A DNA stretch of 64,000 nt. Source: Clostridia bacterium (GTDB taxonomy: Bacteria; Bacillota; Clostridia; Christensenellales; CAG-138). A model generated the notes under the pieces. It was not told where the DNA came from and did no database searches. It was given only the letters and a program-made list of their open reading frames with translations. The stretch lies in contig JAUNBP010000002.1 of NCBI GenBank assembly GCA_030526995.1, positions 1 through 64,000 on the forward strand, in the 5' to 3' direction. Below are positions 2,353 through 2,760 of the stretch, in pieces. Position 1 is the stretch's first letter. Each line of letters starts with the position of its first letter. The position numbers and the translations under genes are program-made.

Positions 2353-2745
2353 CGTGATTTATACGGAAAAATTTAGTATTTTATCCTTGAAGGACGGGAA
2401 CCGTCGGCGGGTGATTAAAATAGTCACTGCGGTGCACGAGGAAGTTCCAAGGTGTATGCCAAGCCTGTCCCTATAGCGGAAACGCAAAGCAAAGGGTCCT
2501 TGCCCTCCCCAACAATTGGGCACTGTAGGCACAGAATAACCAACCTCGTTTCCGGCAAGGAAGGGTAAGGGTGTCCCTTGATGCCAAAACCTTTCGGAGC
2601 AATGCGTATCCGACCCTGCCTGAGAGCGGATACCGCATTTGAAATTGAGCGTCCGAGAAGCAAATTCTCCGACAACCGAGGTTCGATGCTCAAGCCCTCA
2701 GCCGTTGGATACGCATGGGAAACGAACAACGACTTATAAACCCTA
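2353..2745 (+). ncRNA. Candidate structured leader or ncRNA between the WYL pair and the SPFH-rtcB genes
   Basis: ~400 nt without a credible ORF (the 2424-2729 minus ORF is implausible). Many local hairpins. A 12-bp bulged helix AATGCGTATCCG (2601-2612) pairs with CGGATACCGCATT (2627-2639). A third copy GGATACGCAT (2707-2716) is perfectly complementary to 2602-2611, giving two mutually exclusive structures about 30 nt upstream of the AAGGAGG RBS at 2745-2751. Also a GGTTCGATG T-loop-like motif at ~2679. Confidence 0.3.
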
Positions 2746-2760
2746 AGGAGGTATCATACT

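Follow-up and report, generated by a model that had tools for sequence, protein, structure and literature searches.

A conserved two-domain RNA ahead of the Band-7 and RtcB genes of Clostridia, a candidate partner of the RNA repair machinery

In a Clostridia bacterium of the Christensenellales (assembly GCA_030526995.1) an interval on the + strand (2336-2760) lies between a pair of regulator genes and the genes of a stomatin-type SPFH/Band-7 protein and of the RNA ligase RtcB, which raises the question of what this interval encodes and how it might serve the repair genes that it precedes. All positions are those of the window, that is, of the whole stretch of 64,000 nucleotides of contig JAUNBP010000002.1 that was analysed. 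In the original prediction the interval was regarded as a non-coding, structured leader with mutually exclusive helices, having the geometry of a riboswitch or attenuator and possibly containing a tRNA-like module. According to our analysis it consists of a promoter, followed by a non-coding RNA and then by a linker. Judged from its sequence, the RNA of the window (about 335 nt, approximately 2390-2725) is a reduced member of a Clostridia RNA family of about 430 nt, in which a variable middle is enclosed by two constant parts, a three-way junction on the 5' side and a 3' domain of 174 positions. We propose, with a probability of roughly 55%, that this RNA is the partner, as scaffold or cofactor, of a repair machinery made up of a soluble stomatin-like Band-7 oligomer and RtcB.

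The interval was compared in a set of about 110 related loci. A genome scan for Band-7 relatives yielded at least 571 species-level genomes that encode one, 80 loci were kept from it, and five extra loci (L081-L085) were added through the closest Band-7 proteins. Since these loci had been collected by their Band-7 genes first, a separate metagenome scan starting from the RNA was used as a control. Nucleotide-level conservation of the gap was seen in practically every locus. The gap was found to be non-coding, as had been supposed: no open reading frame (ORF) was conserved in the relatives, and the + strand ORFs of 40 and 53 amino acids and the - strand ORF of 101 amino acids matched them as short, mixed-frame fragments. 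The GC content of the region is about 54%, compared to minima of 36-39% in other intergenic gaps of the window. The + strand folded at -131.5 kcal/mol versus -113.2 +/- 5.0 kcal/mol in shuffled sequences (z = -3.65; 0 of 100 shuffles as good), while the fold of the - strand was unremarkable (z = -0.94). The complementary segments listed in the original prediction were all recognized, in place or a few bases away, and together with the covariation described below the + strand fold confirmed that a conserved structured RNA heads the SPFH-rtcB genes.

The 3' domain (2546-2725, + strand), a constant part of the family, was delineated by RNAalifold and by a covariance model, R1. It comprises the helix P_A (2546-2553/2718-2725), the variable hairpin P_B (2559-2564/2590-2595), the helix P_C (2602-2614/2704-2716), the pair G2618-C2702, P_D (2620-2624/2697-2701 plus 2626-2627/2694-2695), P_F (2635-2637/2687-2689), P_G (2651-2653/2671-2673) and the hairpin P_E (2656-2659/2665-2668), all on the + strand; the AAGGG/CCCTT hairpin noticed earlier is present at 2567-2571/2575-2579 and forms the tip of P_B. 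The helices of the domain are also included in the minimum-energy fold of the window. The RNAalifold consensus of 46 sequences contained 45 pairs, 41 of them with compensatory double changes. Counting of 44 consensus pairs in the 46 sequences resulted in 91.7% of the cells paired versus 72.3% after shuffling, the covariation score was 0.616 versus 0.257 (0 of 500 shuffles as high), and in a slid control, where the 3' partners were moved by 1-3 columns, 34-41% of the cells were paired. In 44 loci which had not been used for R1 the paired cells amounted to 92.0% versus 68.4% after shuffling and the covariation score to 0.673 versus 0.226, again with none of 500 shuffles as high. Compensatory changes were present in 39-40 of the 44 pairs of the domain. 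R1 itself was built from the trimmed alignment (174 positions, 44 pairs) with the window among the training sequences; on the 64-kb window it gave a single match, at 2543-2727, over the full model length (115.5 bits, E = 1.6e-28), and it scored 33-160 bits on the 44 untrained loci. Furthermore, several blocks which are unpaired or partly paired are invariant or nearly so (GCAAUG, GCCYUG, GGAUACCG, UCCGC, CUNAAG, AGCCGC and GCAUG), and in the near-invariant block GGATACCG (2628-2635) six of the eight positions are invariant in alignment A6 and the first seven bases are unpaired in the consensus.

These results bear on the objection that no functional RNA exists here and the conservation comes from DNA-level regulatory sites or from a decayed gene. 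A 22-mer and a -10 element at the beginning of the interval, described below, are indeed DNA-level elements, but they leave unaccounted for the hundreds of compensatory base-pair changes over at least 44 pairs, the strand-specific folding and the lack of any conserved ORF, and this explanation can practically be dismissed.

The mutually exclusive helices of the original prediction belong to this same domain. The segment AATGCGTATCCG (2601-2612) can pair with CGGATACCGCATT (2627-2639) in 12 base pairs with one bulged C, giving a local hairpin (2601-2639, + strand), and it can also pair with GGATACGCAT (2707-2716) in 10 perfect base pairs, or 13 with the flanks. Both pairings are thus possible in the window, but of the two only the long-range one, which is P_C, is conserved. 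The long-range pairing (2602-2611/2707-2716) covaried strongly, whereas the local hairpin showed no covariation (57.1% of the cells paired versus 56.7% after shuffling, with 138 of 500 shuffles at least as high). The 3' arm of the local hairpin is mostly the near-invariant block that is unpaired in the consensus, and its 5' arm varies and covaries with 2707-2716. Unconstrained folding of the window gave the P_C state at -74.4 kcal/mol, and forcing of the local hairpin resulted in -63.6 kcal/mol, at a cost of 10.8 kcal/mol. A riboswitch or attenuator in which 2601-2612 alternates between 2627-2639 and 2707-2716 might exploit the fact that the local hairpin could form first during transcription, and partial versions of it (4-8 bp) can be drawn by eye in the closest relatives, L081, L083, L085 and L009. 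Nevertheless, a local helix that does not covary, is energetically this disadvantageous and is accompanied neither by an expression platform nor by an Rfam riboswitch match makes such a toggle very improbable, and the riboswitch or attenuator geometry could not be upheld.

The 5' core (2392-2470, + strand) is a three-way junction of P1', P2 and P3. In the window P1' is formed by GGACGGG (2392-2398) and CCTGTCC (2464-2470), P2 by GCGGGTG (2407-2413) and CACTGC (2425-2430), and P3 by GGTGCAC (2431-2437) and GTGTATGCC (2452-2460), inside which GGA (2440-2442) pairs with TCC (2446-2448). In the family the 5' strand of P1' is UGCAAG-GUAACC and variants of it, and the 3' strand stands just past a conserved GUAUGCC. 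RNAalifold did not recover the long-range P1' on MAFFT alignments because the length of the spacer varies; this helix was tested through the duplex energies of cognate and non-cognate strands and through pair counts on a hand-specified structure. Cognate duplexes had a mean energy of -12.1 kcal/mol versus -9.7 kcal/mol for the non-cognate ones, and the two strands of the window paired with each other at -14.5 kcal/mol versus a mean of -7.4 kcal/mol with foreign partners, none of the 52 foreign combinations being better. In a 15-sequence alignment of the 5' core 90.4% of the cells were paired versus 84.5% after shuffling, and compensatory changes were detected in 12 pairs, 7 of which fall among the 10 pairs of P1'. 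P3 (GGUGCAC/GUGUAUGCC) covaries clearly. The GACGG/CCGTC hairpin suggested earlier can be found at 2393-2397/2401-2405; it competes, however, with the conserved long-range P1' (2392-2398/2464-2470).

Upstream of the RNA, the first 22 nucleotides after the regulator stop codon constitute a conserved site, GTTCGCAGCTTTTTTTCCGTGA (2336-2357, + strand). Of the 80 genome loci about 74 have it with 0-3 mismatches (0-2 in nearly all cases), as do L081-L085, it is far better conserved than the neighbouring genes (59-74% amino-acid identity), and in the window there is one exact occurrence where 0 are expected by chance. It is followed by the -10 hexamer TATTTT (2377-2382, + strand), for which the family consensus is TAnnnT, often in the form of TGnTAAAAT; its T, A and last T do not vary across 52 sequences (alignment A4), and it stands about 19-20 nt past the 22-mer at a nearly fixed spacing. 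The two elements make up a sigma-70 -10 signature in which a conserved protein site replaces the -35 element. The promoter signature, which is the sole basis for placing the start, would position transcription initiation near 2389 and the 22-mer, as a putative operator or activator site, at about -53 to -32. The segment 2336-2382 may accordingly be described as the likely promoter/operator of a small regulon, presumably under the control of the adjacent WYL-type regulators.

Two further signals overlap these elements. A terminator-like hairpin (2318-2351, + strand) at the end of the regulator operon, with AGCTGCGA (2318-2325) pairing with TCGCAGCT (2338-2345) ahead of 7 T, extends into the 22-mer; its left arm is found only where the WYL gene is directly upstream, its right arm is kept regardless, and the conservation of the 22-mer is likewise independent of a WYL gene directly upstream. 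The inverted repeat TTTTTCCGT/ACGGAAAAA (2347-2371, + strand) is situated in the promoter spacer, upstream of the predicted start, and similar CCGTG-N-CACGG repeats stand in many, although not all, relatives. The TCCGT/ACGGA hairpin of the original prediction does exist (2351-2355/2363-2367), but inside the promoter and upstream of the predicted start, hence it is probably not a part of the RNA.

Extra copies of the 22-mer with its -10 are found in front of further genes, where the long RNA is missing: in L037 (2333-4405) the gene of a DUF2828/DUF7788 protein that may be TROVE/vWA-related, in L008 (3266-4500) that of a 393-aa AAA ATPase and in L080 (4151-4712) that of a 174-aa protein of no family. 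The presence of such copies before other genes suggests a small WYL regulon. The arrangement resembles that of the PafBC-type WYL regulators of the mycobacterial DNA-damage response in two respects, since both systems have two adjacent WYL/WCX-type proteins, and in PafBC promoters, too, a highly conserved motif is found directly upstream of the -10, at the usual place of the -35. Adjacent WYL-domain regulators and a conserved motif directly 5' of the -10 were thus both observed here; the motif sequence is different, however, and the second protein here matches WCX weakly.

The distribution of the RNA was then considered in relation to its neighbours. R1 gave one match in each of the 84 Clostridial loci searched, on the + strand and upstream of Band-7, and the RNA was found in every Clostridial Band-7 locus examined. 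The RNA-first metagenome scan, carried out with a block of the 3' domain, yielded 48 pattern matches, of which 25 were confirmed by R1, and Band-7 was located downstream on the same strand in all 22 evaluable confirmed matches. In the viral locus L206 (IMGVR_UViG_3300045988_016381) there is a WYL pair, the same 22-mer and RtcB, with no Band-7 and no R1 match. The RNA was present even where tblastn with the RtcB of the window found nothing; loci without such a match are L003, L008, L009, L010 and L028-L031, and in L009 the ORF after Band-7 (4108-5289) encodes 393 amino acids with no Pfam family. The lack of the RNA in L206 and its presence where the RtcB search fails indicate that the RNA tracks Band-7, and not WYL or RtcB. 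Directly upstream of RtcB, L206 carries two tRNA-like RNAs in long stems (9827-10272), in a YrlA-like layout; one of them scored 48.4 bits on the Rfam tRNA model, over model positions 5-66. A gapped DNA pattern applied to viral contigs gave chance matches only, the pattern being too unspecific.

Outside Clostridia, R1 with default filters found no match in four proteobacterial Band-7 loci (E. coli, Citrobacter, Burkholderia and Photobacterium), and with the filters off, in the E. coli leader only, there was again no match; the 3' domain therefore has no detectable homology in the four proteobacterial loci tested. The islands of E. coli STEC639 (L207, 4469-4997) and Citrobacter freundii (L210, 3547-3994), each with a slipin and a nucleotidyltransferase, have leaders of about 450-530 nt, and next to the Citrobacter island rtcR is encoded divergently. 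In the E. coli leader a sigma-54-like TGGCAC-N5-TCGCA was noted, together with a T-arm, TGGGTTCGATTCCCA, and, after it, a 7-bp hairpin, which is the order seen in Clostridia; Rfam finds nothing in this leader.

The variable middle is where the family resembles tRNA and where the window departs from the family. In most relatives it contains, in this order, a canonical T-arm, a 7-bp covarying hairpin, a D-loop-like element CCAGUGGUUUGG and a tetraloop hairpin. The T-arm, GCGGG-UUCGAAU-CCCGC, has 5 base pairs, 3 of them covarying, and an almost invariant loop, and the 7-bp hairpin is acceptor-like. A second T-arm, GGGGUUCAAMUCCCC, occurs in many relatives, and in many of them (e.g. L022, L027, L035, L038 and L072) an anticodon-like hairpin with a stem of 4-5 bp and a 7-nt loop stands just upstream of the canonical T-arm. 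In about half of the anticodon-like hairpins listed in the relatives the loop is C-U-G-U-N-A-A; the hairpin is absent from the window. A CUGUNAA loop mimics GUN anticodons (those for Asp, Asn, His and Tyr), which form the queuosine family and are the ones that colicin E5 attacks.

The middle module of the window (2471-2545, + strand) is reduced, being about 75 nt shorter than in the relatives, and both the alignment to the closest relatives and an anchor scan revealed that it has neither the canonical T-arm nor the 7-bp hairpin. What is left on the + strand are the hairpins GCG-GAAA-CGC (2476-2485), GGG-TCCTTG-CCC (2494-2505), which resembles a degenerate T-arm with its T-loop mutated to UCCUUG, CCCAA-CAA-TTGGG (2508-2520) and CTGT/ACAG (2523-2534). 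The CCCAA/TTGGG pairing, correctly recognized before (2508-2512/2516-2520), is the reduced D-like loop. The T-loop-like motif GGTTCGATG which had raised the possibility of a tRNA-like module is present at 2680-2688, yet the loop that holds it, which separates P_G from P_F, is variable, and the relatives do not have the motif, so by this comparison it is a chance resemblance. The idea of a tRNA-like module tied to RtcB is nevertheless supported at the level of the family, where canonical T-arms are carried by the relatives; the window copy has lost them. L005 is likewise without a T-arm, and both it and the window keep the two constant domains intact. Loss of an RlaP-type nucleotidyltransferase as the cause of the T-arm loss in the window was rejected, most loci without RlaP having kept the T-arm.

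The mimicry invites the explanation that the RNA is a bait, sensor or decoy, a tRNA mimic with a CUGUNAA loop and a T-arm which is cut by invading anticodon nucleases, whereby the toxin would be soaked up, or a damaged-RNA signal would switch on the WYL regulators, and the RNA would be re-ligated by RtcB. The frequency of the CUGUNAA loop, about half of the anticodon-like loops listed, fits this, GUN anticodons being targeted by colicin E5-type nucleases, and so does L206, where two tRNA-like RNAs are placed under this promoter, before RtcB; in Salmonella, RtcR has been reported to be activated by tRNA fragments, but YrlA to be left uncut by the relevant nuclease (PMC7790460). The loop consensus is, moreover, moderately conserved, and the window copy and L005 lack the mimic modules with both constant domains intact. 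As the mimic is absent from the window copy, the bait role cannot be the core function, and we regard this explanation of the RNA as improbable.

No Rfam 15 family reached its gathering score anywhere in the window, and at E <= 10 the region gave no more than noise. The Y RNA, T-box, riboswitch and tRNA models were without a match in the region; for the T-box model this holds both at gathering score and at E <= 10. On 10 relatives Rfam at gathering score likewise returned noise, save for one unrelated true tRNA in L001, and in one full relative leader the T-arm fragment alone scored. A tRNA was accepted at 29 bits or more on Rfam RF00005 or on an ARAGORN call; the region had neither, ARAGORN detecting no tRNA in it, and a weak tRNA call was obtained in 3 of 51 leaders. 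The sole tRNA of the window, a tRNA-Ser (anticodon CGA) at 33829-33907 on the - strand, is an ordinary one with no relation to the RNA.

The closest precedent is a Band-7-associated tRNA-like RNA (b7a-tRNA) next to RtcB, which was predicted by Burroughs & Aravind in 2016 without experimental validation, as it is summarized in a later study (10.1101/312249). This RNA has no Rfam family of its own. The element described here resembles it, as far as that summary goes, in being a non-coding RNA adjoining a Band-7/SPFH gene in an RtcB repair operon and in the canonical T-arm, 7-bp hairpin and D-loop-like element of most relatives; the leader of the E. coli slipin gene shares the layout of T-arm and 7-bp hairpin. 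The b7a-tRNA is reported there, however, to be strongly tRNA-like, whereas our element is about 430 nt long and its two large constant domains do not resemble tRNA, the Rfam tRNA model stays below threshold in the loci tested, ARAGORN calls are as rare as given above, and the window copy has no T-arms. Measured against the summarized description, adjacency to Band-7 and RtcB is thus found in the window and a strong resemblance to authentic tRNA is not. The cassette of T-arm, hairpin and D-like element is probably what that description calls b7a-tRNA, while the constant domains at the two ends (5' and 3'), to which the window copy is reduced, appear to be undescribed: a literature search, which did not extend to the original 2016 paper on b7a-tRNA, gave no description of a large two-domain RNA.

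Another relevant group is that of the Y RNAs YrlA and YrlB of rsr-yrlBA-rtcBA operons, which have a tRNA-like domain and are regarded as protein-bound cofactors (10.1101/312249; PMC7790460). Y RNAs are characterized by a neighbouring rsr (Ro60/TROVE) gene and by a Ro-binding stem built from their 5' and 3' ends. They share with our RNA the location of a structured non-coding RNA inside an RtcB repair operon and the tRNA-like domain. The differences are that here no Rsr or TROVE protein was found among the cassette genes scanned, the RNA is much larger, the WYL pair takes the place of RtcR with sigma-54, and the partner would be Band-7 and not Ro; neither an adjacent rsr gene nor an Rfam Y RNA match, in the window or in the 10 relatives, could be detected. 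In size class, in the many covarying helices with invariant unpaired blocks and in its phylogenetically restricted yet abundant distribution the family is similar to OLE, ROOL, GOLLD and raiA, of which OLE works in complex with dedicated proteins. It differs from them in having no sequence or structure match in Rfam 15 and in its gene association, which is here with Band-7, RtcB and WYL.

The genes around the RNA are all on the + strand. The first regulator gene (12-1424) encodes a WYL-domain protein (Pfam WYL E = 1.2e-5, weak WCX match), and the second one (1421-2335) a protein with a weak WCX match, no other domain and no significant similarity to the first. The two genes overlap by ATGA at 1421-1424, the stop of one overlapping the start of the other, which implies that they are translationally coupled, and in most loci the RNA is preceded by this pair in conserved gene order. 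The Band-7 gene (2761-3870; Pfam Band_7 E = 1.2e-26) and the RtcB gene (3903-5105; Pfam RtcB E = 5.7e-61) follow. In the typical cassette the genes of the WYL protein and the second regulator are separated by about 500 nt from those of Band-7 and RtcB, which follow in this order, and relatives of the Band-7 protein with 59-74% identity number thousands in Clostridia. No TROVE domain was found among the eight ORFs scanned between 12 and 8883. An RlaP-type nucleotidyltransferase after RtcB occurs in only about 11 of 86 loci and is missing from the window, where two unrelated ORFs of 176 and 213 amino acids (5245-6428) occupy the place in which close relatives carry RlaP; one of them is rich in Pro and Thr, the other has weak matches resembling a lipoprotein signal.

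Between the RNA and the Band-7 start codon (ATG at 2761) lies a linker (2726-2760, + strand) with AACC(C/U) and the ribosome-binding site AGGAGG (2746-2751), without a terminator and unstructured in the consensus fold. In most family members AACC(U/C) stands 2-5 nt upstream of AGGAGG (2735-2752 in the window), and it could pair with the 3' half of AGGAGG in a weak hairpin of 3-5 bp. The RNA is not followed by a terminator, since the one terminator-like site of the + strand, 2347-2371, lies upstream of it, and the ribosome-binding site showed no conserved pairing to the structured domains. In many loci, including common variants of human-gut metagenomes, a conserved ORF of about 222 amino acids is inserted between the RNA and Band-7, and consequently the RNA is the first element of the operon and not specifically a leader for the translation of Band-7. 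This ORF belongs to a common sub-lineage (L024, 800-1468; L053, 4237-4983; also L215, L216, L222, L245, L251 and L257), has no Pfam family and displays the motif ...YHCIFSRSxDGYxRQKH...GHCRMISYWNEYYR....

These data bear on the alternative of a cis-regulatory leader, bound by Band-7, RtcB, a WYL protein or a damaged or uncharged tRNA, which would tune transcription elongation, mRNA stability or translation as ribosomal-protein and T-box leaders do. Such a function would agree with the fact that the RNA always opens the operon, just after the promoter and on the strand of the coding genes, from which no terminator separates it, and with the frequent AACCU just upstream of AGGAGG. The T-loop modules of the relatives could, in addition, dock a tRNA elbow, as Stem I of the T-box does. 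But neither a terminator or antiterminator nor a pairing of the ribosome-binding site is conserved, a different gene follows the RNA in many loci, the size of about 430 nt with at least 14 helices is much larger than that of known leaders, and the T-box, riboswitch and leader models of Rfam do not match. We regard a cis-acting role as a serious competitor, albeit a rather unlikely one.

The reading that we prefer is therefore the one of an RNA-protein partnership, because the RNA co-occurs strictly with Band-7, many of its invariant nucleotides are unpaired, its tRNA mimics are modular, and Y RNA with Ro offers a precedent. The properties of the Band-7 protein, which is of the stomatin type and without a membrane segment, support such a role: it matches solved stomatin structures with E = 2.5e-19, those stomatins form 16-mers, the highest hydrophobicity over 19 residues is 1.04, and about 130 residues with no known fold precede the SPFH domain. 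A WYL-controlled promoter would produce the RNA together with Band-7 and RtcB, presumably by co-transcription, and the RNA, possibly after processing, would then act as a scaffold or cofactor of the repair complex. It might be what the predicted Band-7-associated tRNA-like RNA looks like in Clostridia, a counterpart of the Y RNA that accompanies Ro60/Rsr.

Several points weigh against the partnership. The 5' end of the RNA is deduced solely from the promoter signature. The RNA is always located as a 5' leader that no terminator follows, and this would also be expected of a cis-acting regulator. The window copy has no tRNA-like modules, so that its equation with b7a-tRNA, as the latter is summarized in the literature cited above, is indirect. 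Finally, none of the proteobacterial Band-7 leaders tested yielded the 3' domain, and partnership with Band-7 may therefore be independent of this particular fold.

A further comparison is with the vault particle of eukaryotes, which is composed of the major vault protein with an SPFH-like shoulder, of TEP1 with a TROVE domain and of vault RNA. It is purely an analogy, homology of the RNAs not being expected; it lies in the combination of an SPFH-fold oligomer with a small structured RNA, and in L037 a DUF2828/DUF7788 protein is placed under the same promoter. Speculatively, the RNA could be an undescribed class in which the two constant domains enclose a swappable tRNA-mimic cassette with GUN-type loops, and it could form, with a soluble stomatin-like ring or cage and RtcB, a vault- or Ro/Y-like repair particle, switched on by the WYL pair via a promoter motif of its own, with the mimic serving as bait or dock for damaged tRNAs or anticodon nucleases; we consider this doubtful in its entirety.

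RtcB repair operons occur widely, but little is understood of what they act on and of their accessory components, and their Band-7 branch with its RNA has so far been a computational prediction. What is gained here is a covariation-supported architecture for an RNA of about 430 nt, a covariance model, a candidate WYL promoter/operator and a candidate for a new Rfam family. Natural minimal variants, including the window copy, separate the constant domains from the tRNA-mimic cassette. Several cultured gut species are among the genomes encoding the Band-7 relative; cultured carriers include Ruthenibacterium lactatiformans (L001), Oscillibacter valericigenes (L075), Subdoligranulum variabile (L208) and Robinsoniella peoriensis (L077). 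Taken together, these results make the proposed complex of Band-7, RNA and RtcB directly testable.

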